This document shows, in pieces, positions 6,956 through 63,312 of a stretch of 64,000 nt of DNA (positions within the stretch are counted from its first letter, which is position 1; every line of letters starts with the position of its first letter). The notes under the pieces are model-generated. The model saw nothing but the letters and a program-made list of their open reading frames with translations. It did not search any database and had not been told where the DNA came from. The position numbers and the translations under genes are program-made. This DNA comes from a virus. Lineage: Duplodnaviria > Caudoviricetes. Location: the IMG/VR virus record IMGVR_UViG_645948442_000001, positions 1 through 64,000 of that record. One strand, 5' to 3'.

Positions 6956-8240
6956 ACACAGGCTCCTTGTTCATTTTCTCGTTGATGTCAACAGCATAGC
7001 CATTCTTGACCAGTTCAAGCACTGTGGTGAAGGATTCCCGGGTGATGACTTGCTTCAAAGAGCACACCAACCATCGACCGGAAGACACTTGTTCAGTGCG
7101 GTATCCGGAGATGGATCGATCTGGTATCTCAAGCTCCACCACCACGCCAGCCCGCAAGGAGCTGTTGCCTGGGACTGCGATGATCACCCTCTGGTCGTCG
7201 ATCAAAGAAGCGTTCATCTGACGATAGTAGTGCCCCTCGTGGGACTTATCCTCCCTCACCATCAGAACGTCGCCATACACATCACGCCCATACACGTATG
7301 GGTCCACCAATGGGTATTCCTCAACCTTGAAGAACTGCTTGTTCGATGCCATGGTCCTGTAGTCCGCCGATTGGCTCAGCTTGAACCGCTGGGTTGTCGG
7401 GTCCAAGAACACATAGCGAGATCCATACCCATGCTCAGCGAACTGTCGCATGCGGTCATGGTATGGCTTGATTTCGTACTTCAGCACCCGATTGAACTTG
7501 CGGTTGAAGTCACCGGCGTCCTGGGACACGCCACCCGGCTCAATTCTGTAGCTGGCCACAGACTCGCCATGGAGCATGTTCTTGATGCTGAAGAAGTTGA
7601 ACCCATCCAAAGTCTCAAAGAAGTAGAATGGCTCGTGATCCTCACCCATGGTACGGCGTGAGATTTCGAGCACACACTTGATTGGCGACCAGTTGGGTGC
7701 GATGAATTTCTGCACATACAGAGTCTCATCCATCACAAATGGCTTGGGATTGGGCAGGTCCGGGCGGTCAGGGTCAGTGAAGTTGTCCAGAATCTTTGCC
7801 ACGATCTCGCCATATGTGCCCTTGTAAGACTTGCTCAGGGTCATGTTGGCGTCCACCCAACGCTCAGGAGTCACCAGGTCCAACACCAACACAGACAAAT
7901 TCTGACCGTCCTGGGACAGCTCCTTGCTGGTGATCTTGGCGATGATGTACTTGGCCGAACGTTCCTGGTCCAGTGTCGGGGTCTTGTACCTGATGTCCAG
8001 GCGCTCACCGCCCACCACAGGGAAGTTGTCGGTGATGTTGGCATAGTCCATGAGCACAATCTTGGCAGACATGATGTCATGGATGTCTTCGTAGAAGTCA
8101 AGCTCGTACATCATTTCCTTGATGTCGAACTTCTCCTCGTTGGTCCAACCCTCACGGTACAGCAGGATGGAGTTGATCTCCATCTGCTCCAAAGGGTTGT
8201 ACAACGATTCATCAGCGGGTGCTTGTTCGACGGAACTCAT
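6885..8240 (-). CDS. Baseplate hub protein (gp27-like)
   Basis: FYEDI, FPVVGGE, FYFFET..GFNFFSI, VPGNSSLRAG, SGRWLV motifs; synteny. Confidence 0.7.
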   Translation of the reverse strand: MSSVEQAPADESLYNPLEQMEINSILLYREGWTNEEKFDIKEMMYELDFYEDIHDIMSAKIVLMDYANITDNFPVVGGERLDIRYKTPTLDQERSAKYIIAKITSKELSQDGQNLSVLVLDLVTPERWVDANMTLSKSYKGTYGEIVAKILDNFTDPDRPDLPNPKPFVMDETLYVQKFIAPNWSPIKCVLEISRRTMGEDHEPFYFFETLDGFNFFSIKNMLHGESVASYRIEPGGVSQDAGDFNRKFNRVLKYEIKPYHDRMRQFAEHGYGSRYVFLDPTTQRFKLSQSADYRTMASNKQFFKVEEYPLVDPYVYGRDVYGDVLMVREDKSHEGHYYRQMNASLIDDQRVIIAVPGNSSLRAGVVVELEIPDRSISGYRTEQVSSGRWLVCSLKQVITRESFTTVLELVKNGYAVDINEKMNKEPVYDKSRAEQAVSKPSDTKPEIAAE

Positions 8241-8754
8241 CCCTCAACTCCCTGTCGACTGGCCCAACCCAGTCTGGGTCAAGCAATACAATGTTTCGAC
8301 GAGCCTCATTCAAGCCGCGCTCGTAGTCCTCGATTGAGATGGGCGTGAGACCCTCCAGGGCGATGGCACTCTCAACCGTGATGCCTCGCAGGATGGAAAT
8401 GGCCAATGGACTTTGCACCACACCCAGTTCATCCACATAGTGATGGGTCTCGCCCGGCTCGTTGTCCGGCCACTTCTTGCTGATGTGCTCTCTGAGCTCC
8501 ATCTCGGTCATGGGCCAGTCGTTCATGATGTCATCCATACCGTTGTACAGATAAATCAAGTACCACAGGCTTTCCGAACCATACAGGCGCAAGGCAATCT
8601 GCTCTGGCCGCTCACCCTCTCGGATGGTGTACTTGAGCCAATACTTCGCGTTCTTGTACTTGGCGGCGATGGAAGCGAATTTGGTCGTGTCGGGTATTGC
8701 GATGTTGCCCATGCCGGGCACGTTGAACATCGTCAAGCCATAGTAGCGCAGCAT
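8212..8754 (-). CDS. gp53: Baseplate wedge protein gp53 (LysM-like)
   Basis: YTIREGERPEQIALRLYGS..LWYLI...N...MNDWP and NEARRNIVLL. Confidence 0.88.
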   Translation of the reverse strand: MLRYYGLTMFNVPGMGNIAIPDTTKFASIAAKYKNAKYWLKYTIREGERPEQIALRLYGSESLWYLIYLYNGMDDIMNDWPMTEMELREHISKKWPDNEPGETHHYVDELGVVQSPLAISILRGITVESAIALEGLTPISIEDYERGLNEARRNIVLLDPDWVGPVDRELRDEFRRTSTR

Positions 8755-24033: not shown

Positions 24034-25551
24034 TCAGACCAATTTTGTCGTAACTGACCTCAAACCGGAGACATTGAATACATGGGTCTCAACAGGGTGC
24101 TGCTCTTCATCATAGATAGCCAGACGTTCTGACGCATGCCGCAGGGCGTGATTGATCCAACCGGCATAGCTGAGATCATCAACCAGGTCATAGATGGTGG
24201 CCACCTCCTTGCTGTCGTGTAGACGGATGGTCCGGCCAATCGACTGGATCACCTTCACGGACGACTTGGATGGGTGAGTGAACACCAGGTTGTGCAGGTT
24301 CTTGATGGACACCCCGGTGGATACGCAACCACTGGTCGCCAACAGCACCACAGGCTTACCAGCTGCCACACCTTCCATCTCCGCCTTTATCACATCGCGA
24401 TCAGCATTCGCCACATCCCCGTCGATCACCCTGACGAGCACTGAGTCGTTGCCCTCCAGCATCTTCTTCACCAACTCCAGGTGGGTGTCAATGCGGTCGA
24501 ACAGCACCAGGGTGTTGCCCTTGGCAGACAGACAGATGTTCTTGATGATGCGGTTGCGGTACTCGTTGCTGATGATGAACTCAATTTCCTTCTGGTAGTC
24601 ACGATCCTGGGCAAGAGCAACCCGGTCCTCAGACTTGTGGTTGATCTGGATCATGATCACCCTGGTCTTGGCCGCCCGACCGCTGTCCTGAAGTTGCTTG
24701 GCGGTCACCAGCCTGCGCACAGGCCCGAAATGCTGTTGGACCTGGAGCGGATGATTGCGACCCTTCTTCAGCGTGCCGGTCAGCCCGTATCTGTTCCTGG
24801 CGTTGATGCAGTTCTTGCCGATGTACGTCAGACACTCAGCAGAGAATGTGTGACATTCATCACCAATCATCATGTCCCACTGGTGGAACCACTCTTCGGG
24901 CAAATTCTTGAGAGACTGCCATGTGGCCACAACGACAGGCTTGGATGTCCATGGGGTCGCACCCTCACAGATCATGTGGACGTTGCCCTCAGCATCCCAG
25001 CCGTTCGCGCTGCTGTAGTTCTTGAAGTCCGAGACCATCTGAGAAACCAGATTGATCGAAGGGACAATCAGCAGGATGCGCATACCAGCGTTTAGGTAGA
25101 ATCGCACCATCATGTACTGCAGCAGAGACTTGCCAGCAGCTGTGGCGGCCAGCAAGGTGATCCGGTTGTTGTTGGCGGCCAGGTGTAGTCCCTCTAGCTG
25201 GTAGTCGTACGGCTCAATGGGCTTGCCCTTGTCATGGAGCAACAGGGTCTTGGCCCATTCGTCAGTCTCCTGCTTGGGTATGGCCCTGAAGTCTTTCAGC
25301 AATTCTGGGTCGAGGTTGTAAGACCAACGGCGTTGGGTGGTGAGTTCCAACAATACATGCAGCAGCCCATACGGAAACTTGCCTGTGCGCTTGTCGAACA
25401 GCCTGATCTTCCCGTCGTATCTGCTGTACTTGTTTGGTCTGAAGTCCGGGTCCTCCAACTTGAAGTACTCGTACACATCCTCCATCACGCCGGAATCTCC
25501 AGAAACCGACAGCCAGGAGGCATTGATTATTCCAATCCCGATGTCTGGCAT
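24034..25551 (-). CDS. uvsW: UvsW SF2 RNA-DNA/DNA helicase
   Basis: YDGKIRLF, PYDYQ, ATAAGKS, TWQSL, GDECH, GLTGT, STGVSIKNLH, IQSIGRTIR. Confidence 0.95.
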   Translation of the reverse strand: MPDIGIGIINASWLSVSGDSGVMEDVYEYFKLEDPDFRPNKYSRYDGKIRLFDKRTGKFPYGLLHVLLELTTQRRWSYNLDPELLKDFRAIPKQETDEWAKTLLLHDKGKPIEPYDYQLEGLHLAANNNRITLLAATAAGKSLLQYMMVRFYLNAGMRILLIVPSINLVSQMVSDFKNYSSANGWDAEGNVHMICEGATPWTSKPVVVATWQSLKNLPEEWFHQWDMMIGDECHTFSAECLTYIGKNCINARNRYGLTGTLKKGRNHPLQVQQHFGPVRRLVTAKQLQDSGRAAKTRVIMIQINHKSEDRVALAQDRDYQKEIEFIISNEYRNRIIKNICLSAKGNTLVLFDRIDTHLELVKKMLEGNDSVLVRVIDGDVANADRDVIKAEMEGVAAGKPVVLLATSGCVSTGVSIKNLHNLVFTHPSKSSVKVIQSIGRTIRLHDSKEVATIYDLVDDLSYAGWINHALRHASERLAIYDEEQHPVETHVFNVSGLRSVTTKLV

Positions 25552-25603
25552 CCTGGGCTCCCCAAATTGATCATGGTATTGTATTTAGGAGTCACCAATT
25601 CGC

Positions 25604-26011
25604 AGCTATAATAAGTACCTGACGTGATGGGTTCAGCTGTACACTTGCTCCCCATCGACACCTATACTGGCCAAGAAATTTGGCTCCCGAGTGCTTAGAA
25701 TGCACTCACGATCCATTAGGACTCACGACCGATCGCAATCTGACGTTTAAGTGGCGGCTGCATGGTGAAACAACCAAGGACATGCAGTTTAGCTCCTGTG
25801 TTGGCGTCTCAAATCTAGACACAGGGGAGGGACAGGCTATTTCACTGCCTGTCGGGGGAGACCCCAAGTGCCCGAGTACCTGGCTGTTGAAGCCTTGCAG
25901 TGAACCTTGCTGCACCACATGATCCTGAGGACGACCCATTCACCATGAGTTGTGGATGTCTCATCACCCAGGTATGTGGAGGGAAAGTGGTGAATTGTGT
26001 CCGAAATTCAC
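25604..26011 (+). ncRNA. Candidate structured ncRNA or RNA-primed origin, copy 1
   Basis: Intergenic gap densely filled with hairpins, starting at a TATAAT/ATAAGTA composite promoter; six ordered blocks shared with 60117-60642. Confidence 0.6.
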
Positions 26012-26025
26012 AACCAGAAGGAAAC

Positions 26026-26496
26026 ATGAGCAAACTTGAAGACAACAGCACAGTCCTCGATGTCATACCAGTGACATTCGATGAGATTGAAGCCAAGGTG
26101 AACAGCGCACTGGAGTGCTCCGAGAATTTCGACTGGGAAGCCCGTCGCAACAATCGCATATTCTCCATGTTGCAGCGCCTGTACCACTTCCACACCGTCA
26201 AGCTGATGGCCCTGCAAGAGGACCGTGAGATGGTGAAGTTCAAGCGCAACCGCTACTACAACGGCAAGGCCCCGGCCGAGGAGTACAAAAAGGAGCCGCT
26301 CCGGGAGTCCATCCTGAAGTCTGACCTGGACCAGTGGATGAAAGTCGACCATTACATGGTCGCCATCAACAAGCTGGTGGCCGAGCAAGACCGCATCGTC
26401 AAGTATCTGGAGGAAGCCAAGAAGTTGGTTTCTGAGCGCGGATACCTGCTGAACACAGCCCTGAGCCACCAGAAGTTGCAGATGGGATTGAGCTGA
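26026..26496 (+). CDS. uvsY: Recombination mediator UvsY
   Basis: YYNGKAPAEEYKKEP....LKSDL....D motif; next to uvsW; SD AAGGA. Confidence 0.85.
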   Translation: MSKLEDNSTVLDVIPVTFDEIEAKVNSALECSENFDWEARRNNRIFSMLQRLYHFHTVKLMALQEDREMVKFKRNRYYNGKAPAEEYKKEPLRESILKSDLDQWMKVDHYMVAINKLVAEQDRIVKYLEEAKKLVSERGYLLNTALSHQKLQMGLS

Positions 26497-27356: not shown

Positions 27357-27361
27357 AAAAC

Positions 27362-27395
27362 AAAAATCCCCTGGGCTTGCGTCCAGGGGATTTTT
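27362..27395. terminator. Bidirectional terminator
   Basis: AAAATCCCCTGG..CCAGGGGATTTT. Confidence 0.8.
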
Positions 27396-27485
27396 GCTGT
27401 GGGGTGTGACGGCCATGGTTACACTTAATCAATGCTGGCTCCTTACCCCTCACATATACTTAGCACTCAGTTTCAGGTTATAATC

Positions 27486-27983
27486 TCAGCGATCTATGCC
27501 GAACATTTCGAACAGGTCAGCATTGATACCCGATTGGAATTCCACGTCGGTACACTTGAATGACACGTTCGCATTCACATCATTCGCAGCCCCCTGCGCA
27601 TCCAGCAGGCCTGGCCCAATCATGAATGGGAAGCAATCCTTGTAGATGACCCGAGTGCCAGTGAACTGGTTCTGGTTATCCAACAGATTGATCTCGATGT
27701 CCTTGACTATCGGGACATCCTTCCCCACATTAGCCTTCAACCATAGCGAGCAGAGCAAGTAGTTGCGCCAGAGCGCGTCCACTTGGAAATTCAGGATCAG
27801 GTCATCCACGGACAGCCGTGTGCCTGGTTGATACAGTGCTATGGGCCCAGAGAATGGGATTTCGGTCACACCGTTGCTCAGATTGGGCATGGTGAAGTCC
27901 AACAGCTTGTACTCAATTTCCTTTAGGCCGCCAATAACCGCATGCCAGCGGTTGCTTTGCGCATTGCTTGGGATCAAATCCAT
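27486..27983 (-). CDS. gp3: Tail completion / tube terminator gp3-like
   Basis: PG..L..DDL..NFQVD..W.NY, LLDNQN, YKDCFP; tail-tube-fold family. Confidence 0.8.
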   Translation of the reverse strand: MDLIPSNAQSNRWHAVIGGLKEIEYKLLDFTMPNLSNGVTEIPFSGPIALYQPGTRLSVDDLILNFQVDALWRNYLLCSLWLKANVGKDVPIVKDIEINLLDNQNQFTGTRVIYKDCFPFMIGPGLLDAQGAANDVNANVSFKCTDVEFQSGINADLFEMFGIDR

Positions 27984-37522: not shown

Positions 37523-37550
37523 TGTCAGCCTCCCCTATGGTATAACACCT

Positions 37551-37591
37551 GTATTTAGCAAAAGAAAAGCCCCTCCAGTTGAGGAGGGGCT
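37551..37591 (-). repeat. Terminator plus late-promoter cassette, copy 1
   Basis: Identical to 51673-51712 except for one loop base. Confidence 0.8.
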
Positions 37592-46804: not shown

Positions 46805-49800
46805 TCAAGCCAGCGCCACGCTCCGGAAGTCTTCAATTTCCGGGGTGTCTGTGCTATCCGAACCGAAGAACACGATTCGTTGCTTCACGCCCACGAATGG
46901 GACTGTGGTGGTGTAGTTGTACTCAATCTCTTGGAACGACTTGCTGTCGTTGACGACAGGCTTGGTCGGGTTGATGGTCGTCCATGGGATATCGTTCAGG
47001 TTTTGGTCACCAGTCGTCATGGGCTTGATCTGCACCACAATGCGGTTGGAACCCGGCAGTCGAACGTTGGCCCAGCAGCGGAATGCTGTGTTGGGGTTGT
47101 CATACTTGAGGGAGTTCGACACATACGAGAAGTAAGGGATGGAGTCGTGGATCCGACGGTGGCGGAAGCTAATGGCACCACCGTTCAGGTCGAACAGAGG
47201 AGTCATGTAGCCATCCGTGGTGTTCATCGTGCACCTGATCTCGAAGTCGCCCTCGTTGATCAGCACCCCCTCTTCAGGGAGAGACACGAATTGATCCGTG
47301 TAGTCGAACTTGACCCAACCGCTCTTCGCCCGGCTGGCCTGTCGCGTGTATTGGTATTCCCACACCAGTGATGTGCCCTGCCTGTTGATCGCGCCCGCCT
47401 CGACCCGGAACTCGCTGATAGGCATGTTGGTCTGAACGATGATCGTCTCTCCGCCGAACACGCCATCGGAGGTCGCATTCTTGGGCATTGTGACAGTCAC
47501 TTGGTCCAGATCAACCACGGTGATCACCGTGTGCTCCTTGTTCAACTCGTTGGCCAGGTATCCATTGCCGGCAGCCGCGCCAGACACAACGAACTTGTCA
47601 CCAGGCCGCAGACCGTGGGAACGGATGTTCATCGTGACAGTAGCGTTGCCATTGGTGGACAGGAACGCATTGATCGCAGCACGCACAGCATCCGGCTTAC
47701 CAGACTTCACCAGAGTGATCGCAGGGGTGTTGGTGGTGAAGTTGGCAGCGTAGACCTGGAGCTTCAAGTCCTCAAACTGGTGAGGAGTCCAAGTCATGGC
47801 GTTGGCGGAAGTCAGGAACACGCCCATGTCAGGCTGCTTGGTGACTTGCTCCCTCGTGCCGATCTTGAAGTTGCCCATCACAGCCTTGTACACCTCGTAC
47901 TCTTGGGTGTCAGCCACAAGCACGATGGAATACTCGGTGTTAGCCTCCAGGAATGGAGGATCATCGAATTCAAACGCCGTGGGTACGGAGCCGTCGGCCG
48001 ATGTGGTGATCTGGGATGGGTAGATCGTCTTGGCGCCGAAAACCAGAACCTGATTGGTCGGGAGACCCACCAGGTTGGTGCGGATTTCCATCGTCACGGG
48101 AATGGTCTGCGCCTTGTGAGCGAAATACACATTCACCTTGGACAGATACATGCCGCCAGGAGGGGTTACAAAGAAGGTCTGGGCGATAGGGTCATACGGC
48201 TCCTGGATGTACGTCAGGTTCTGGCGAATCTTCATGTCATGGTAGTTGTCGACTCGCTTCACCTGTCGGATGCCGCCGGATTCGAACACGATCTTCCCGG
48301 ATGTCACGCTGGTGGGCAGGTTCTCGCCAGTCGGGATGTCGCTGAATTTCAGCTCAGTCTCGCCAGTACGGAAACGTTGAGCTGCCGAGTTGGGGACATT
48401 GAAGGTCACCTTGGCCTTGCCCTCGCTGGACACCATGATGGGGTCGCCAGGGTTCGCGGGGCCGAAGCCGTTCCAGGGGCGCATGTATTGACTGACAGGC
48501 ACGCCACCGAAGAACCCGTACAGACGGCCTTGCGGTCGGAAATTCTCCAGCTCGCACACGATCTCAATAGGACGCATGTACTCAATAGGAGCAGATTCCA
48601 GCAGCAAGGTCTCAGAACGCACGTTGTCAGATGTGATCTGGTCAGTGAGGAAAGTGCGTGTCTGCGTCTGGCTCCAGAAAGTGTGGGAAATCAGCTTGTT
48701 GACGAGAGTGGGCGCCTTGTTGTAGGTCTGGTAACGCACCGAAACGCCAGCGACGTCGGTGTAAACCACATCGTAGGTGTTGGTGGGCGGCTGCCAGATG
48801 GTATCGACCCAGAAGTCATTGTTGGGGGTGGCCTTGATGCGTCCAGTCCAGGTGAACACAGCATACGGGTTGATGTTGGTGGTGTCCGTAGCGTAGGGCT
48901 GTTCACTGATCAGACGGTGGTCATACGCGATGGTCGCCAGGTCGCCTACATGCCGAACGTTGCTGCCACTCACATAGATCAAGCTGGTCACCGTCTCCCG
49001 GATAGGAGCTTGGATGCGATTTGTGTCAACGTCCAGAACGCCACCCCACTGGGAGTCCAGGAAGTCGCAACGGGAGCTGTCATCGAAACCGTCAGCGAAG
49101 AACCCATTCTTGTAGCGGTCATTGCCTGTCACAGGATCCTTGACCTGGGTGGTCTTGGTCTTCTGTTCCAGCATAGTCAGCGAGGTGTAGTACTCCAGGT
49201 TGCCGATACGGCGCTCGAGACCACCAATGTCACGCATGGTGTACCGACGGTTGTCGATCTTGCTGACCATGATATCTTTGATGTTCTCGGTGTACGCAGG
49301 CACGAACAGATTGAACAGCAGCATCGTGTTGGCAGGAGCCCTCGGCAGAATCTGCTCCAGGCTGGAAGTGCCGCGCAACCAAAGGTAGCGTCCGTCGGCA
49401 TCCAGATAGACGCCATCCACACGAGACATGTAGTATGTCAAGTCATACCGCACACTGGCCGAAGGGTCAACCATGTCACCGTTGAAGGTGCTGGAAGTGA
49501 AGTTGCCGCTGGCGTCCTTCACCTGGCGGAAATCGAGGCAGTCGGCAAGAGACACTTCCTTGCGGGCAGCGGTCTCCTTCGTCTTGGGGATGTCTTCCCG
49601 CGCCATACCACCGTAGGAGTCCACAGTGAAGTAGTCGCCCATGGAGTGCTCAAAATACTGGTACGTGACCGAGTACGTTTGGCGCAGGTTGGCTCCAGAC
49701 TTGGTGTAGATTTCCCCCACCTCGTACCAGTTGGGGCGCTGGCCAGTGAAGTGGCTGAATGCCGCGACCTCGTCCAGCTGGTTGGTGGTGTTCACCACGG

Positions 49801-51652: not shown

Positions 51653-51672
51653 CTAACTCTCCTTGTTACCAT

Positions 51673-51712
51673 GTATTTAGCAAAAGAAAAGCCCCTCCAT
51701 TGAGGAGGGGCT
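51673..51712 (-). repeat. Terminator plus late-promoter cassette, copy 2
   Basis: GTATTTAGCAAAAGAAAAGCCCCTCCATTGAGGAGGGGCT. Confidence 0.8.
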
Positions 51713-57537: not shown

Positions 57538-58278
57538 TCACTCTTTGATGAGCGTCAACTTGAAGCCGCCTGGGTGGAAATTGGGGTAGTAGATCCGATC
57601 AAGGATCTCCTGGTAATGAATGGGGTCCCTAGTCACCTTGATTACCATGCTGTACTCCTGGTACACTTCATCGTCCCGGATCAGAGTGGTGTCCCCGTCT
57701 ATCACCATGTCGTCATCAATCCGAGCCAACACCAACTTCGGGTTGAAGAACTGGATGTCCTCGCCGAAGAATATGTTGAACAGCAGCCTCAACACGAAGT
57801 TGGTGCCCTTGGAGGCATACAGATGCTTCAGCAAACGGAGGTATCGCACCTCATCGATTTGCTCCAGCGTAGACAGATTGTTCGAAGGGGTGTGATTCAT
57901 CCGCTTCGACCACATCTCAATACCAGCGTTGATGTCCGTGACTGTGTCCCAGATCAACCCATCAGATTCCGTGAAGGTCTCAGCATCAGCAGTCTCGAAC
58001 CCGTCAAAGGCCCGGTACAGAGTCATGTTGTCATGAAAATTCTGATGCCAGATGCCAGGCTGGACCCAATTCTCATGTTTGTTGACCAGGTCAGAGTTAG
58101 TCAGCGGATCATACCGACCTTCTGACTCCTTCTCACGGTAGAACCTGACCTCGCCACGTGTCAAACCATTGCGATACTGCCAGTCATAGTACTGGTCAAG
58201 GAGGGCAATAACCCTGGGGGAATCCGTCAGCATCCGACGTGGGAGCTGGGCGCTGACGAAGTCGGTATCAGTTCTCAT
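57538..58278 (-). CDS. Baseplate wedge subunit (gp7-like)
   Basis: LYASKGT....LF..FFGE, YQEYS, HPGGFKL; directly after gp6. Confidence 0.7.
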   Translation of the reverse strand: MRTDTDFVSAQLPRRMLTDSPRVIALLDQYYDWQYRNGLTRGEVRFYREKESEGRYDPLTNSDLVNKHENWVQPGIWHQNFHDNMTLYRAFDGFETADAETFTESDGLIWDTVTDINAGIEMWSKRMNHTPSNNLSTLEQIDEVRYLRLLKHLYASKGTNFVLRLLFNIFFGEDIQFFNPKLVLARIDDDMVIDGDTTLIRDDEVYQEYSMVIKVTRDPIHYQEILDRIYYPNFHPGGFKLTLIKE

Positions 58279-60070
58279 AGATCAACTCGCGGGAGCGAAC
58301 CTCAAGGTCAACGTTGGTGATACTCAGGATGGACCGCTTGGATCCAAACAGAGAGGGGTCTTGACTGTCAGGAGTGATAGCCACATGCACCCCTTCTGCT
58401 GTGTCAGTTGACAGGGCCAGGAACTTCACCAACTGAATGGTGCCCTTCGCGTAGTCAACCGTGCCGGCAGGGGCGGGAGAGATGCGTTCGCCGCCCGCCT
58501 CCTTGTCTCGGTTGCGCCAACGCAGGTACAACAATCCATCCTTGTCAAAGATGTCCTGGGCCCAACCGGCAATGTCGACTGGAGAAGGCGTGCTGAACTG
58601 GGTGATGCGCACAGACCCTGGCTTGATCGGGGAAGTGAAGCTGAATGTGTAGTTGTTGGCTGCACCAATCGCCGGGGCCATCATCTTCACATAGTCAACG
58701 TACAAGGTGAGCCCACGGATGGACTGATCGACGCCATTGACAAATCCGACCAGGTTGGAGTACACGAAGTCAGAACCGAAGAACTCCAGATGCTCCTTGC
58801 TCCACTGCTGGATGGCCCGGGTCACCTTGATCTTCATGGACTGCTCACTCAGCACAGTGCTGTTGTGGCTGTACAGAACTTGACCACGGATGTTGATGTG
58901 GGTGAATATAGGGTCCACAATCATGGGAGTCACAGAGGAAACGCACCGGCTGGTGAGCATGCCCTTCAGCTCAGCCTTCTGGACATCATCAAGCAGGTCA
59001 CCACTCTTGGGTTTGACCGCAACAAACTGGTAGCCATACATGGGCGGGTCGTTCTCCTCACCGCCCCAGCTGATGGCCGATTCAGCTTCTGGGAAGTTGG
59101 CCAGGGTCAGAGCCACGAAGTCATTGGTGGTGACAGCGTTGCCTTGTGCAGAGAAAGCCAGCGGCGCGATGCGTCGCACTGTGTCAATGGCGTCCTCATC
59201 AGAACCGCCATAGCTGTACATCTGGATGGGGAACACAGACACGCCATAGTGACCACCCACAGAGCTCACCGACTCAACGGCCTTGGCTCCGTTGCCATCT
59301 GCGCCTTCAGTGGTGAGGGCTTCAATCACCACGACTGATCCGAAGGCCGGGCGACGGCTGATCTTGTCGTCCCCGAACTCAATGCTGTAACGACCGTTCT
59401 TGTCTGAGTCCAGGAAGAACACACATTGATCTTTGCCCAGATCATAGATGTTCTCAAACTTCTTGTAATTGGTCAAGTCGGTGGACTTGTTGTTGGGGAG
59501 CACACCAACCTTGACGAAATCTGTGTCAACCGAATCGAACGGGATGGTGTATGCTTCCGTGGTGTGATCAGCCTGCACCACATAAGAATGGTTCACCCAT
59601 CGTCCCTGCACCAACTCAACGTTCTTGAAGGTGTACGCCCCGTCAATCAGCTCCGCCTCATGCTCTGTGGATGCGCTGAAGAAGAGGCTCACGCCATCCT
59701 TGTTGGTGAAGAATTTCGCCTTGCGATCCAGAACCAGTGTGGGGGTGGTGGTTGCCCCGGTGACTGGGCGCACCACGATATCGGCATGGTACCTGGCCGC
59801 GCGCTTTCCTCGTGGCACATACCCCAGCACAGATGAGATTGCGTTCACGTTCCTTGGGATTGTGGCCGACTGGAGGTCCATCTCATTGAACAGGAAGTTG
59901 TTGCCCGCCTGCTGCATCTGAGAGTTGTACGCAAGGACGCGTAGAATAGCCTTGGCCACGGAGCCGTCCCAGTTCACGTCTCGGAACCCGGCCTGTGTAC
60001 TCATGTACGTCTTCAACGACTCCATGATGTCGTTGAACTCGAAACTCTGGGTCATCCGATTGATAGTCAT
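58268..60070 (-). CDS. gp6: Baseplate wedge protein gp6
   Basis: FRDVNWDGS, LAYN, LGYVPR, IEFGD, AQGNAVT..DF, WGGEENDPP. Confidence 0.93.
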   Translation of the reverse strand: MTINRMTQSFEFNDIMESLKTYMSTQAGFRDVNWDGSVAKAILRVLAYNSQMQQAGNNFLFNEMDLQSATIPRNVNAISSVLGYVPRGKRAARYHADIVVRPVTGATTTPTLVLDRKAKFFTNKDGVSLFFSASTEHEAELIDGAYTFKNVELVQGRWVNHSYVVQADHTTEAYTIPFDSVDTDFVKVGVLPNNKSTDLTNYKKFENIYDLGKDQCVFFLDSDKNGRYSIEFGDDKISRRPAFGSVVVIEALTTEGADGNGAKAVESVSSVGGHYGVSVFPIQMYSYGGSDEDAIDTVRRIAPLAFSAQGNAVTTNDFVALTLANFPEAESAISWGGEENDPPMYGYQFVAVKPKSGDLLDDVQKAELKGMLTSRCVSSVTPMIVDPIFTHINIRGQVLYSHNSTVLSEQSMKIKVTRAIQQWSKEHLEFFGSDFVYSNLVGFVNGVDQSIRGLTLYVDYVKMMAPAIGAANNYTFSFTSPIKPGSVRITQFSTPSPVDIAGWAQDIFDKDGLLYLRWRNRDKEAGGERISPAPAGTVDYAKGTIQLVKFLALSTDTAEGVHVAITPDSQDPSLFGSKRSILSITNVDLEVRSRELIYEN

Positions 60071-60116
60071 CACGATCTCCAATAATAGTGCTCAATGTAT
60101 TTACTCATCAAAATTC

Positions 60117-60642
60117 AGCTATAATAAGTATGATGTGCGTGAAACCCTTACCCTTTGGGACACGTGACCGCTATACTGATCATCCAGGCATGGGTGAGCC
60201 TTTACCCCATTCACCGAATGGCCGTGTGAGCAACGGCAACTGTCCGATCGAGAAATCGCGGGCGCCTCGAACCTGTGAAGAGAGCAGGCGTGTGGCATAG
60301 AGACAAGACCAATTCCGGTTTTCCTGCTGGGTCTTGTCTCCATCATTCTATTGATGTTTGGACTCATGTCCATGATGTGCCTTCTGACGACGCGCGAGGT
60401 GAAACAAAGAACAAGGAAGGCGATGGACGCCTGCTGTCTGACCGGACAGTGGCGGGAGGGAGTGTTCCCTCAAAGTCTGAGTACATGCTGGTCGGTTCCC
60501 GATCAGTCCACCGTGCAGGGGTGGCCCACTACCTTGTTCAGATGTCTGACGACTGAGAGTCTCGTTTCTCTCTTTCGTTTATGGCATCTGAGCACTCAGG
60601 TAGTGGGATGGAAAAGGGATGAATTGCGTCTGTGCCATTCAC
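60117..60642 (+). ncRNA. Candidate structured ncRNA or RNA-primed origin, copy 2
   Basis: Intergenic gap with long helices (GAGACAAGACC/GGTCTTGTCTC, CCCACTACCT/AGGTAGTGGG) and blocks shared with 25604-26011. Confidence 0.6.
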
Positions 60643-60741
60643 GCGCCGTAGGCGCATGATTTGCACAATGGTATATCGCGCGAGAAGCGCAGCCAGACAG
60701 CCTGTTAAATACAGACAGATAAACCAATTTGAGAACCCAAC

Positions 60742-61047
60742 ATGTTTGCTCCTATCGCTGAATATCAAACTCCCTATTTCTCCATGACTGCTGTCGGTCT
60801 GGTGGGCCAAGACCAGAAGTTCTACCCAGGGGCCATCTTCCGTGGTTCGGACAAGGCGCTGGCTGAGATATTCGAAGGCCACACCATAACACTGAGTCAG
60901 AATGGAGTGGTCACTCTGGATGGTGAGGAGCTGGGAGCTTCGATCAGGCTGTTCAACTGCCCCAAGCGTGAGGTGATCGGTCGCTGGGTCAAGAGCATGA
61001 TCGGTACTGGAGCACTGGTTCTCGTCATCGACTATGCTGCTCAATGA
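60742..61047 (+). CDS. Hypothetical protein
   Basis: First gene of a tightly packed + strand operon; TTAAATA box at 60705-60711. Confidence 0.7.
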   Translation: MFAPIAEYQTPYFSMTAVGLVGQDQKFYPGAIFRGSDKALAEIFEGHTITLSQNGVVTLDGEELGASIRLFNCPKREVIGRWVKSMIGTGALVLVIDYAAQ

Positions 61048-61300
61048 TCTGGAAGCCATCAGCTGGTTCAAGGACCCAAAATTCGATCCCCTGGAGCACC
61101 GTTTCGGGGGTATAATTGGTGATCACGTGCTGTTTGCCAAGTCGGGCAAAGACAAGACTATCATGAGAGGCACCCTAGTTGGATGGCGTCACGGAGGCAC
61201 AGGCCCCAACATGATGATCGAGGCTGACGACCCTGAAGTTGGCACAGTGTTCACCCGTCCGGCTCTCGTCTGGACCATCAACAAGGAAACAATCAAGTGA
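61034..61300 (+). CDS. Hypothetical protein
   Basis: Overlaps its neighbours in operon fashion. Confidence 0.65.
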   Translation: MLLNDLEAISWFKDPKFDPLEHRFGGIIGDHVLFAKSGKDKTIMRGTLVGWRHGGTGPNMMIEADDPEVGTVFTRPALVWTINKETIK

Positions 61301-61653
61301 CTACTCTCATCGCCAAGCCGGGCCTCATCGCCGTGCCTGAAAGTGTGATCCAAGACATCGGGCGCCGTGAAGAATGCCTGCTGCTCCCGAAGATCACCAA
61401 CGGCTCTGGCCAAATGCGCCGCCTGGCCATAGGCGAGGTGACTTCGGCAGTTCGTGCTGCCAATGGTGACATCATCTTTGAAGTGGACATCCGAGAAGGA
61501 CAACTGGCTGTCTTGCCCGGCACTGAGGTGACCTATGACCTGATGCTGCAGCCTGCCGACCTCAACTGGTTCAAGCGCCTGGTCAACTGGATCAAGCCTG
61601 GCCACTTCCCCGAGCATGAAGTCGTTTCGATCAACTTCATCAACCTGAAGTGA
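61297..61653 (+). CDS. Hypothetical protein
   Basis: GTGA coupling, SD AAGGA, hairpin downstream at about 61659-61684. Confidence 0.7.
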   Translation: MTTLIAKPGLIAVPESVIQDIGRREECLLLPKITNGSGQMRRLAIGEVTSAVRAANGDIIFEVDIREGQLAVLPGTEVTYDLMLQPADLNWFKRLVNWIKPGHFPEHEVVSINFINLK

Positions 61654-61701
61654 ATCCCTGCCCCGAGCCAGTCTCGGGGCATTTGTCTTATCTGGAGTCT
61701 C

Positions 61702-63312
61702 ATGGACGCTCAAACCGAACATATCCTGGCCATCGCGCGTAAACACTTCCCATACCCCACACCCAATCCAGGACAACTGGAAACCATTGTAGAAACCGTC
61801 AAGGCATTCAAGTCCGGCAAGAAGCATGTGGTGGTTCAAGCGCCCACAGGCATCGGCAAGTCTGCTATCGCCAAGACAGTTCACTCAGTGATGGCTGAAC
61901 TGAGTCCCGACAGGTTCAGAACCACCATAACGACGGCCTCTAAGGCCCTGCAGGACCAATACACGGAGGAATACAAGCAGATCTATGACCTGCGTGGTCG
62001 GACCAACTACGACTGCCCTCATAGCCTCGGCCCGTACAACAGCGGATCATGCCGGGGCGCCCGCCGCAGGAAGGAATGCAATGCCAAGGCTGAGTGCCCC
62101 TACCTGCAGACCCGCAACCACTGGTGCAACATCGCCGATCTACGTGTGACCAACAACAGCTTCAGCATCGAAGCCTGCGCCATGCTGGTGATGAGGCCCG
62201 AGAACCGAGCGAACCTGATCATCATCGATGAGTGCCATGAAATTGATGACAGCCTTTTGGAGCACACGAAGATCATGCTCAGGCCGTCTGACTTCTGGGG
62301 CATTGACGATCTGAGTGAGCAGATCAAGAAGGTCATCTCCCTGTTCACCATGATCCCTCTCGGGGTGCCTGTCGTGACTACAGACAACATGAAGCAGGCT
62401 TTCGCTGAATTCGCTGAACGGGCCAGCGCCGTCTACGACAGGCTGGTCGAGGACTTCGAGAAGCGCAACGGCGACTTGGACGCACTGGGCGACAAGATTG
62501 ACACCATGGAAACCATCATGGACAAGCTGGGTATGTTCATCGGCCCTGAAGTGTCCACATGGATCGTCGAGGAGGTCAACCCTGATCTGTCCTACCTGTC
62601 CCTGAAGCCCATCAAGGCCAGCCAGGTGGCGTACTACGGCCTGTTCCGCAAGGCTGACTACTTCCTGCACATGTCTGCTACGATCTGCGGCTTCGGAGAG
62701 TACGCTGAGTCACTGGGCATCAAAGATGATGAGGTGGAGTACCTCGATGCACCGAACCCCATCCCCGTGGCCTCTCGCATGGTGTATGTGCCAGCCAAAC
62801 AGAAGGTGTCTGGCACAATCGACTACGACCAGTTGACCGAGAACATCGACAACCTCATCAGCCTGCACCCTGAAGAGAATGGTCTGATCCACACGGTATC
62901 CTACATGCTGGCCAACGAGGTGTTCAAGCGCAGCAAACACCGGGATCGCATGTTCATGTCCAAGGACAGGGCTGAGATGGTGTCTGAGCTCCGCACCCGC
63001 AAGAATGTGGTCGTGTTGAGCCCTTCCATCGAGAAGGGGTTCGACGCCAAGGGTGACATGGCCAGGTTCCAAATCGTGGCCAAGGTTCCATTCCCATATC
63101 TCGGGGACAGTCTGGTTAAGTACAACAGCACGAACACGGCTGGGTGGTATGAGCGCAAGACGGCATTGAGGGTGGTACAGGCTTGCGGCCGCGTGACTCG
63201 GGGAGTCAGCGACTTCGGGGTGACGTACATCATCGATACCAACTTCAGGCGCCTGTACGAGCAGAATCCACACCTGTTCCCTGAATGGTACAAGCAATCT
63301 GTGAGGATGTGA
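61702..63312 (+). CDS. DinG/Rad3(XPD)-family SF2 helicase
   Basis: QAPTGIGKS, LQDQY, GRTNYDC..CPY four-Cys cluster, IIDECH, MSAT, KVPFPYLGD, QACGRVTR. Confidence 0.9.
   Translation: MDAQTEHILAIARKHFPYPTPNPGQLETIVETVKAFKSGKKHVVVQAPTGIGKSAIAKTVHSVMAELSPDRFRTTITTASKALQDQYTEEYKQIYDLRGRTNYDCPHSLGPYNSGSCRGARRRKECNAKAECPYLQTRNHWCNIADLRVTNNSFSIEACAMLVMRPENRANLIIIDECHEIDDSLLEHTKIMLRPSDFWGIDDLSEQIKKVISLFTMIPLGVPVVTTDNMKQAFAEFAERASAVYDRLVEDFEKRNGDLDALGDKIDTMETIMDKLGMFIGPEVSTWIVEEVNPDLSYLSLKPIKASQVAYYGLFRKADYFLHMSATICGFGEYAESLGIKDDEVEYLDAPNPIPVASRMVYVPAKQKVSGTIDYDQLTENIDNLISLHPEENGLIHTVSYMLANEVFKRSKHRDRMFMSKDRAEMVSELRTRKNVVVLSPSIEKGFDAKGDMARFQIVAKVPFPYLGDSLVKYNSTNTAGWYERKTALRVVQACGRVTRGVSDFGVTYIIDTNFRRLYEQNPHLFPEWYKQSVRM

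Follow-up and report, generated by a model that had tools for sequence, protein, structure and literature searches.

RNA II of plasmid ColE1, a transcript of several hundred nucleotides (nt) made from a sigma-70-type promoter, carries a fold that decides whether the hybrid at its 3′ end persists and primes. In phages, HK022 put and lambda nut are paralogous, promoter-proximal structured RNAs that each phage carries in multiple copies, where early transcription units begin. For phage T4, the review PMC3016281 describes oriF and oriG as a promoter joined to an A+T-rich unwinding element; leading-strand synthesis is primed there by transcripts that persist as R-loops, which UvsW, expressed from a late promoter, unwinds. 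Together with oriE, these two origins are placed close to regions where transcription diverges. According to the same review, T4 origins share no common sequence or structure and need only ~100 bp, and the use of a transcript as primer is also mentioned there (PMC3016281). Here, we analyze positions 60,117–60,642 of a 64,000-nt stretch of phage DNA (IMG/VR record IMGVR_UViG_645948442_000001; hereafter, the window), which an original prediction had read as the second of two copies of a structured non-coding element. This element, copy 2, is predicted to be the expanded and largest member of a three-copy family of structured non-coding RNAs. As for function, we tentatively place first, as a possibility rather than a probability, the reading that the three modules are phage replication origins making origin-type pre-primer transcripts.

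Each module consists of an early-type promoter followed by a non-coding RNA of 310–470 nt, whose transcription, like all of the function discussed below, we infer from the sequence. The source record is a 157,486-bp virus genome, rated complete by CheckV, and the window is its first 64 kb. Copy 2 sits in a 659-nt gap (60083–60741). Copy 1 is found at 25552–26025, between uvsW (24034–25551, minus strand; late promoter at 25580–25587) and uvsY-exonuclease; on the plus strand, it runs from its promoter P1 (25603–25612) to 26025, and uvsY starts at 26026. Copy 3 lies beyond the window, on the minus strand at genome positions 136483–136846, inside a 554-nt gap (136404–136957). It was found because a copy in Ralstonia phage RSP15 precedes that phage's clamp gene, and the gap upstream of the clamp gene was therefore checked here. 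With copy 2 as the query, nhmmer recovered only copy 1 from the genome, and weakly (E = 0.0022); with copy 1 as the query, the E-values were 2e-15 for copy 3 and 0.0067 for copy 2. Weak similarity between two copies can hide a family, as the copy-2 query alone missed copy 3.

The sequence similarity of copy 2 to copy 1 thus appears weak. A global alignment of the two, with the promoter excluded, scored z = 3.5 against dinucleotide shuffles (1 of 300 equal) and 3.2 standard deviations (sd) above 293 random genomic segments, with a single segment scoring higher. Exact matches to CTATACTG and GGTGAAACAA occur nowhere in the genome beyond copies 1 and 2. Copies 1 and 3 have 73% column identity in a MAFFT alignment; copy 3 bears TAGGACTCACGACC, identical in copy 1, and also CCAGGTATGCGGAGAGAAAGTGGTTAACTGCGTCC vs. 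CCAGGTATGTGGAGGGAAAGTGGTGAATTGTGTCC. Measured from its presumed start through the shared 3′ block, copy 1 is ~394 nt long and copy 2 ~511 nt; this difference of 117 nt agrees with the ~120 nt first proposed, and copy 2 holds 131 nt more than copy 1 between the CTATACTG and GGACTCA blocks, in the form of additional hairpins. All features of the family were located in copy 2, namely, the promoter, the 5′ hairpin H1, the closing helix GAC.C/G.GUC, the block hairpin, the hpE-AAAG..GAGUA junction, hairpins a–c, and the GRAAAG joint. A candidate fourth copy at 131464–131590, a weak match (E = 0.0073), falls within a coding frame, and gaps at 27357–27970, 42.1–43.0 kb, and 44.5–45.1 kb, tried as copy 1, are unrelated and apparently artefacts of a crude picker of open reading frames (ORFs).

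Copy 2 is, by all signals examined, non-coding. The codon-usage score across 60060–60700 reaches at most 0.02 in any frame, compared with 0.2–0.35 in the flanking genes, and none is positive across the gap. Searches of Pfam and PHROGs at E < 0.01 matched none of the 12 ORFs (37–102 codons) of copies 1 and 2, and tblastx between the copies returned only short, stop-containing matches and no protein-level similarity. The ORFs differ among the copies in place, frame, and length, and none is conserved. Between copies 1 and 3, mismatches by codon phase number 55/57/55, and the gap lengths (1, 1, 2, 1, 7, 3, 18, 3, and 4) are mostly not multiples of three.

A shared fold is supported by covariation. 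For copies 1 and 3, RNAalifold predicts 71 consensus pairs, 23 of them compensatory, i.e., changed on both sides. Against 100 controls, in which alignment columns of like conservation class were shuffled, the consensus energy is −61.9 vs. −42.9 ± 5.5 (reached by 0/100), and the compensatory pairs are 23 vs. 15.1 ± 3.3 (reached by 1/100). The helices common to all three copies were verified letter by letter. H1 occupies 60137–60165 in copy 2, positionally equivalent to H1 of copy 1 (25626–25656) and copy 3, with covarying stems (GCGUG/CACGU in copy 2, GAUGGG/CCCAUC in copy 1, and GAAGG/CCUUC in copy 3). The bases after H1 pair with the 3′ end as a long-range closing helix, GACAC/GUGUC in copy 1, GACGC/GCGUC in copy 3, and GAC(C)GC/GCGUC in copy 2, with a middle pair that changes from A-U in copy 1 to G-C in the other two. 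Its 5′ strand in copy 2 (60166–60186) reads GACCGC, the conserved CUAUACUG, and UCAUCC, with GAC(C)GC facing GCGUC at 60626–60630; in copy 1, the helix lies at 25657–25661/25997–26001 and 25665–25668/25989–25992. The 3′ strand is the 3′ block AUGGAAAAG-GGAUGA-AUUGCGUC (60608–60630), the best conserved block of the element (blastn E = 1.2e-4 to copy 1). This pairing accounts for the conservation of both end blocks. Another long-range pairing, of the GGACUCA block with GKGRUGA...GUCY, is good in copies 1 and 2 and loses a pair in copy 3, and was set aside for the closing helix.

Inside the closing helix, the block hairpin (60341–60377; copy 1, 25709–25735) has a covarying stem, CAUCAU/AUGAUG in copy 2, CGAUC/GAUCG in copy 1, and CUGCAU/AUGCAG in copy 3, and presents the conserved block GGACUCAUGUCC (60360–60371), so that GGACUCAYGNCC is displayed in the loop in all three copies. 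The 3′ domain consists of four hairpins parted by conserved purine-rich joints. The first, hpE, lies with its junction AAAGUCUGAGUACAUG at 60456–60487 (copy 1 hpE, 25854–25865); its stems differ among the copies (GGGG/CCCC, GAGC/GCUC, and, in copy 2, GAGGGA/UCCCUC) and are followed by AAGU/AAAG..YGAGUA. Hairpins a (60487–60507), b (60508–60524), and c (60525–60607) follow in the same order in copy 1 (25882–25979), copy 3, and RSP15, enclosed by a covarying 3-bp bracket that is CCU/AGG, UCU/AGA, or, in copy 2, CAU/AUG (60484–60486/60608–60610). The joint GRAAAG is kept in all three copies. Constraining the folds to these family helices costs 5.8, 10.7, and 6.4 kcal/mol relative to the minimum free energy (MFE). 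A hand alignment of copies 1 and 2 has a structure conservation index of 0.36, which is low, and MAFFT alignments that include copy 2 misplace its hairpins. With three plus three sequences as the basis, details of the fold will change as more members are added.

Every helix named in the original prediction for copy 2 is present in the sequence. The copy-2-specific expansion (60187–60340) is predicted in the MFE fold to form hairpins at 60192–60207, 60208–60220, 60221–60237, and 60300–60340, the last closed by GAGACAAGACC/GGTCTTGTCTC (60300–60310/60330–60340; 11 perfect pairs), and to send out long-range stems at 60239–60246/60443–60450 and 60283–60291/60427–60435. Further on, GTCCAT/ATGGAC (60368–60373/60423–60428) encloses GCCTTC/GAAGGC (60379–60384/60416–60421), a hairpin (60379–60421) whose loop holds GGUGAAACAA (60398–60407), a 10-mer found exactly in this genome only in copies 1 and 2, and TGTTCAGATGTC/GGCATCTGAGCA pairs at 60535–60546/60583–60594. 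The view of a folded RNA with a conserved core and variable arms is borne out by the third copy, the covarying stems, and the absence of an ORF common to the copies. Copy 2 is also more stable than its dinucleotide shuffles: the fold of 60131–60660 has an energy of −224.9 kcal/mol, vs. −186.0 ± 6.9 in 100 shuffles (z = −5.61), none of which is equally stable. In a repeat run, the plus strand gave −224.9 kcal/mol (z = −5.72) and the minus strand −197.2 kcal/mol (z = −4.82). Among 25 other 530-nt windows of the genome, the mean z is −1.34 (sd 1.38; minimum −5.32), which puts copy 2 ~3 sd beyond the background, yet one of the 25 is as stable. That background window (genome 66001–66530; z = −5.32 with 20 shuffles) contains a strong terminator hairpin at ~66430–66455 and a GGCTATAAT promoter with a ~110-nt leader.

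These data bear directly on a reading without any function at the RNA level, in which the copies are duplicated promoter regions or DNA-level sites (e.g., for protein binding) or code for small proteins, with incidental helices. The general promoter consensus CAGCTATAAT does contribute to the 5′ similarity, the AAATTCAC tails described below may be decayed second promoters, copy 2 contains ORFs of 93 and 102 codons, copies 1 and 3 are thermodynamically unexceptional, and one of the 25 background windows equals copy 2 in stability. Compensatory changes above column-shuffled controls, stems at fixed positions with unrelated sequences between the copies, the better folding of the plus strand, and the lack of any common ORF, frame, codon-phase signal, or protein-family match all argue the other way, and we regard this reading as quite improbable.

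The family looks new, with no matching Rfam family and nothing comparable from literature searches. None of the 4227 models of Rfam 15, which include group I/II introns, RNase P, tmRNA, 6S, riboswitches, GOLLD, ROOL, and HEARO, reached its gathering score anywhere in the window. When matches up to E = 10 were admitted, the sole returns for copies 1 and 2 were snoRNA/sRNA noise (E = 0.71–5.9), far below the cut-offs, and at E up to 1, nothing was found within copy 3 or the RSP15 elements. The literature searches yielded no comparable element, though supplementary tables of PMC10690425, which list candidate structured RNAs from viral contigs, might include this record.

Two promoter motifs are relevant here. 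P1 of copy 2 is a match to CAGCTATAAT on the plus strand (60116–60125; −10 element TATAAT at 60120–60125), and the RNA is presumed to start near 60132. As motif matches, CAGCTATAAT or CAGGTATACT precedes each of copies 1–3, followed by non-coding sequence, and the 15-mer CAGCTATAATAAGTA precedes both copy 1 and copy 2. Seven CAGCTATAAT-type sites exist in the genome, six of them intergenic (25603 and 60116 in the window; 101592, 102343, 127409 on the minus strand, 136971, and 154780 in the genome), with an A/T-rich run upstream and no clear −35 element, and this motif is best taken as a general, early-type promoter consensus of the phage. The promoters at 101592 and 102343 have near-identical leaders (AAATCCAYCTCAACCAARAC) of only ~35–45 nt. 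The second motif, the 8-mer TAAATACA, has 10 sites in the 157-kb genome (9780, 16719, 25580, 30737, 37550, 41444, 51672, 52066, 60096, and 60706, all within the window); all are intergenic, and nine lie 14–40 nt ahead of a gene start on the same strand. It is evidently the late promoter of the phage and can be likened to the T4-type TATAAATA. The uvsW gene bears it, and T4 uvsW is likewise late. At the copy-2 gap, one site on the minus strand (60096–60103) serves the gp6-like baseplate gene, 14 nt before the ORF, and another on the plus strand (60706–60713) serves ORF 60742–61047 and the operon that includes a DinG-type helicase. The TTAAATA box at 60705–60711, previously proposed as a downstream promoter, proves to be part of the latter.

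Whether the element is a module of its own or a mere 5′ untranslated region, as the original prediction had denied, can be answered in part. In four of the five members other than copy 2, namely copy 3 and all three RSP15 copies, a second promoter stands between element and gene, which fits a module of its own. The layout of copy 3, for instance, is P1 CAGGTATACT, ~350 nt of RNA, a second promoter CAGCTATAAT at ~136466–136475, and an ATG at 136403, all on the minus strand. On the other hand, copy 1 leads directly into the uvsY ribosome-binding site with no intervening promoter and is thus at least also a leader, and copy 2 lacks a convincing terminator: a GCGCC-GUA-GGCGC hairpin followed by AUGAUUUG (60643–60655, plus strand; seen in the sequence and the MFE fold) would be a weak terminator at best, and the terminator scan called neither it nor any other at the 3′ ends of copies 1 and 2. 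The AAATTCAC tails of these two copies are similar to sequence ahead of CAGCTATAAT and may be decayed second promoters.

The same arrangement raises a rival in which the elements are promoter-proximal, cis-acting RNAs, either put/nut-like sites for processive antitermination or long regulatory leaders, that carry or time early transcription into the replication/recombination operons. The folded RNA would exert its effect while nascent, on its own transcript or the complex transcribing it. All six copies in the two phages stand directly behind a promoter and co-oriented with the operon, copy 1 adjoins the uvsY ribosome-binding site directly, the scan calls no terminator at the 3′ ends, and the downstream genes all have replication/recombination functions; moreover, the copies recall HK022 putL/putR and lambda nutL/nutR in being paralogous with covarying stems. 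Against this stand the second promoter between RNA and gene in four of six copies, together with the late promoter in copy 2, since leader-type control would be bypassed by a promoter so placed. The elements also exceed known antiterminator RNAs four- to sixfold in size, no element accompanies the early promoter at 136971 or other CAGCTATAAT promoters, and the genes after the gp6-side copy differ between the phages. A cis-acting role of this kind is somewhat unlikely on balance.

Terminator-like structures occur elsewhere in the window. An identical 28-nt repeat at 37550–37577 and 51672–51699 contains, on the minus strand, the terminator-like GGGGCTTTTCTTTT and then the late promoter CTAAATACA, ahead of two structural genes. 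A perfect terminator-like hairpin, AAAAATCCCCTGG...CCAGGGGATTTTT, lies directly 3′ of the exonuclease gene (27357–27395), and the 611-nt 'gap' at that point (27357–27967) probably holds a minus-strand ORF missed by the gene caller.

By its proteins, the phage is assigned as a distant relative of Ackermannviridae/T4-like phages. Its genome has 56% G+C, and no tRNA genes were found in it. The best protein matches in the phage collection come from RSP15, with identities of 45.6% for UvsW and 38.1% for gp6; searches of viral contigs, metagenome contigs, and species genomes gave no close relatives, and blastn of 58200–62000 against phage records gave no match. Left of the copy-2 gap is the gp6-like baseplate wedge gene (58268–60070, minus strand; phrog_219, E = 1.8e-157), and to its right, all on the plus strand, three small ORFs (the first at 60742–61047) precede a DinG/Rad3-type helicase (61702–63312; Helicase_C_2; phrog_2488, E = 3.3e-173). 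The copy-3 operon encodes a phosphoesterase, the sliding clamp (134498–135172, minus strand; phrog_223, E = 2.9e-52), and a clamp loader (phrog_168, E = 3.9e-91).

RSP15 (NC_030948) contains a parallel triad. Divergent from its gp6 gene and ahead of ORF052-UvsW is an unannotated gap of 532 nt (48448–48979) with a consensus sigma-70 promoter at its start, which matches two further RSP15 loci at E = 4e-18 (70% identity) and E = 1.3e-11 (68%). The paralogues lie at ~8009–8314, in an 838-nt gap ahead of UvsY-exonuclease, and at 106489–106784, in a 470-nt gap ahead of the clamp/clamp loader genes. All three are unannotated and share one layout, i.e., promoter, ~300–390 nt of RNA, a second promoter of sigma-70 consensus, a short leader, and the gene, and their alignment contains covarying hairpins. 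Both phages thus have three copies each, in the same uvsY-exonuclease, clamp/clamp loader, and gp6-divergent contexts, and this parallel in copy number and context stands regardless of homology. By eye, the order of the RSP15 3′ domain matches that of copies 1–3: hpE (stems CCGG/CCGG and CUGC/GCAG), AAAG..CUGAGUA, a bracket (AUCC/GGAU), hairpins, GGAUGAAAAG, 6–7 variable bases, and AUUGUAUCU. Two patterns were derived from RSP15, AAAG-N0-4-CTGAGTA and GGAWGAAAAG(≤1 edit)-N5-9-TTGTATC(≤2 changes). Each has a single match in the present genome, both of them inside copy 2 and in the correct order (60472–60483 and 60606–60630); in RSP15, they strike the three copies plus two and five other places. 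As the tolerances were set after copy 2 had been seen, this agreement is supportive and not independent. We consider common descent of copies 1–3 and the RSP15 elements probable, with a fair margin of doubt.

Beyond these two phages, which hold the six known members, searches for the element came back largely empty. A covariance model of the RSP15 3′ domain (R1) found no match in Cygsa01 or LIMEstone1, whose gp6-upstream gaps are 114 nt and 332 nt, respectively, and A+T-rich relatives of gp6/UvsW, with 28–40% identity, lack the element. Pattern scans of viral contigs returned at least 116, 20, 15, 0, 15, and 0 stretches, and in nhmmer none of 116 and none of 35 screened viral loci resembled the copies. 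Two of the later 15 stretches were RSP15 itself, and the best of the others (L318) lies in a coding frame. The metagenome pattern scan returned no stretches, and the scan of genome contigs at least 120 chance stretches, with 122 loci screened and none below E = 0.38. Acinetobacter phage nACB2 (OQ032512; L341:107–1332) has a 1.2-kb divergent non-coding gap ahead of its UvsW-helicase operon. In this gap, a hairpin is followed at once by an exact GAGAGAAAGTGGT, as in copy 3, and the gap also contains CACCTATAC, a match to copy 1, and GAGAAAG-N9-CTTGTATAT; a second hit in nACB2, with one mismatch, falls inside a gene. The gap may be a reduced or divergent relative and is taken as a lead only.

Sequencing runs suggest where the phage occurs. 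Parts of it were found in three DNA runs (~6% of the sampled words each, at a depth of ~2) and in none of the RNA runs. Two 151-nt contigs from a riverine metagenome run (X3), at least 99% alike to the phage sequence, cover 59916–60209, where gp6 starts and copy 2 has its 5′ end, and 151-nt contigs from two wastewater runs are 95–99% alike to the start of the helicase gene (61618–61942). The phage or close kin would thus occur in riverine and wastewater samples at very low depth.

The genomic positions of the copies bear on the origin reading. Strand blocks were drawn with a crude codon-usage gene caller, and minor single-gene inversions, some of which may be artefacts, are seen in both genomes. 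The present genome has three major minus-to-plus switches (25.55/25.9, 60.08/60.74, and 136.4/136.96 kb), and so does RSP15 (~7.6/8.4, 48.5/48.9, and 106.4/106.9 kb); each switch in either phage carries one copy. The copies are always on the side of the divergence that heads into replication/recombination genes, and on one side only: the early promoter at 136971, opposite copy 3, has no element. Genes downstream of the gp6-side copy differ between the phages, a DinG-type helicase here and ORF052 plus UvsW in RSP15. The earlier observation that two copies lie near helicase/recombination genes holds insofar as the operons serve replication and recombination; with three copies in hand, the link is to divergence points generally and not to helicases.

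If the modules are origins, the early promoter at each would make an untranslated transcript whose fold would play the role of the RNA II fold in ColE1, and UvsW, from its late promoter, would later clear the RNA-DNA hybrids. Copy 2 would then act as the origin that separates the late structural block from the 55-kb rightward block. This reading is ranked first, somewhat ahead of a gene-specific regulator, because copy 1 stands at the uvsY promoter beside uvsW with its late promoter, because there is one element per divergence and not one per early promoter, and because the genes downstream of the gp6-side copy differ.

A number of observations pull in the opposite direction. On the side of structure, GGUGAAACAA is missing from copy 3, and the stabilities of copy 1 (z = −2.32; 2/100 shuffles) and copy 3 (z = −0.88; 16/100) are ordinary against the background of −1.34 ± 1.38. 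The three sequences also allow competing pairings; CAGGUA, for example, has both GAGUACCUG and the 5′ strand of hairpin c as possible partners. What connects the phage to RSP15 is context plus short motifs picked by eye: model R1 found the three RSP15 copies (E = 4e-28 to 4e-21) and nothing at copies 1–3, and nhmmer profiles between the RSP15 elements and copies 1–3 found nothing in either direction. As to mechanism, T4 origins are small and without a common fold, so the T4 precedent does not predict a conserved fold of 300–470 nt, and a tightly folded RNA is expected to be a poor R-loop former. The elements have no G-rich skew (GC skew +0.01 and +0.08; RNA body 52–54% G+C), and the cumulative GC skew does not turn at the copies. 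Finally, position alone cannot tell an origin from a regulator, since any early operon that borders on a late module will have its head at a divergence in any case.

A further rival is that the copies encode a stable, trans-acting RNA (a ribonucleoprotein scaffold, decoy, or ribozyme) made early from three genes for dosage, excised at the closing helix, and acting elsewhere. The closing helix joins the 5′ and 3′ ends and so defines a discrete body, the architecture has many helices with invariant, single-stranded, purine-rich joints, and the likeness within each genome (73% for copies 1 and 3; 68–70% in RSP15), against no detectable similarity of copies at equivalent positions in the two phages, is what concerted evolution looks like in multi-copy RNA genes. 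Such an RNA would have no need of three fixed positions, yet these are kept in phages whose proteins are 38–46% identical; it would also lack a terminator, no known RNA family matches it in Rfam, and the 131-nt expansion of copy 2 is odd for interchangeable subunits. We therefore hold a trans-acting RNA to be unlikely, more so than the cis-acting alternative.

Returning to the origin reading, an RNA at every major strand switch offers a testable handle on both the origins and the early-to-middle gene control of Ackermannviridae-like phages. In two phages with proteins 38–46% identical, this RNA marks all the major strand-switch points ahead of the uvsY, clamp, and helicase operons. It is conceivable, and somewhat doubtful, that the family represents a new kind of origin, in which a folded pre-primer RNA of ~300–470 nt occurs once per divergence point, the triad predates the split from RSP15, and the likeness of the copies is due to gene conversion; equally, it could be a new large ribozyme or ribonucleoprotein for phage DNA replication or recombination. 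If the RNA has an activity of its own, it would constitute a new class of large structured RNAs found only in viruses. In practice, long 'empty' intergenic regions in such phages are features worth annotating.

Compared with known systems, the elements combine traits of several. GOLLD and ROOL are, like them, large, intricately folded, phage-borne RNAs without an assigned function; they often lie beside tRNAs, unlike the copies, which sit in a genome without tRNA genes and give no covariance match. To our knowledge, neither has been reported to occur in three copies at fixed positions. The put/nut sites differ in being ~70 nt long with one or two stem-loops, whereas the present elements have many helices and a closing helix and stand on one divergence side only; a promoter-proximal hairpin, H1, does have a covarying stem in all three copies, but the conserved element is 300–470 nt, as opposed to the short put/nut type, and no boxA/boxB-like match was found. 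ColE1 RNA II is a plasmid element under the control of the antisense RNA I and has no sequence or Rfam similarity to the copies; apart from a single promoter-like site on the minus strand, there is no sign of an antisense partner.

Among T4 elements, the gene 32 pseudoknot and the RegA sites are, similarly, RNA elements in the leaders of replication/recombination genes, and a 2023 survey reports candidate structured RNAs ahead of GP32 genes (PMC10690425). These translational operators are short and overlap the ribosome-binding site, unlike the elements here, where a second promoter usually intervenes. T4 oriF and oriG, at ~100 bp, have no common motif or fold, MotA-dependent promoters, and an A+T-rich unwinding element, in contrast to the conserved 300–470-nt fold found here; no MotA-type box was seen at the copies, though no search was aimed at one. 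By eye, the stretches after copies 2 and 3 look A+T-richer than the genome as a whole (56% G+C), and copy 1 is followed directly by uvsY. The present modules nevertheless resemble oriF (uvsY) and oriG (34) of T4 (PMC3016281): an untranslated transcript, predicted here, is driven by the promoter at uvsY, each genome has more than one such site, the sites occupy divergence regions, and a late UvsW is nearby.

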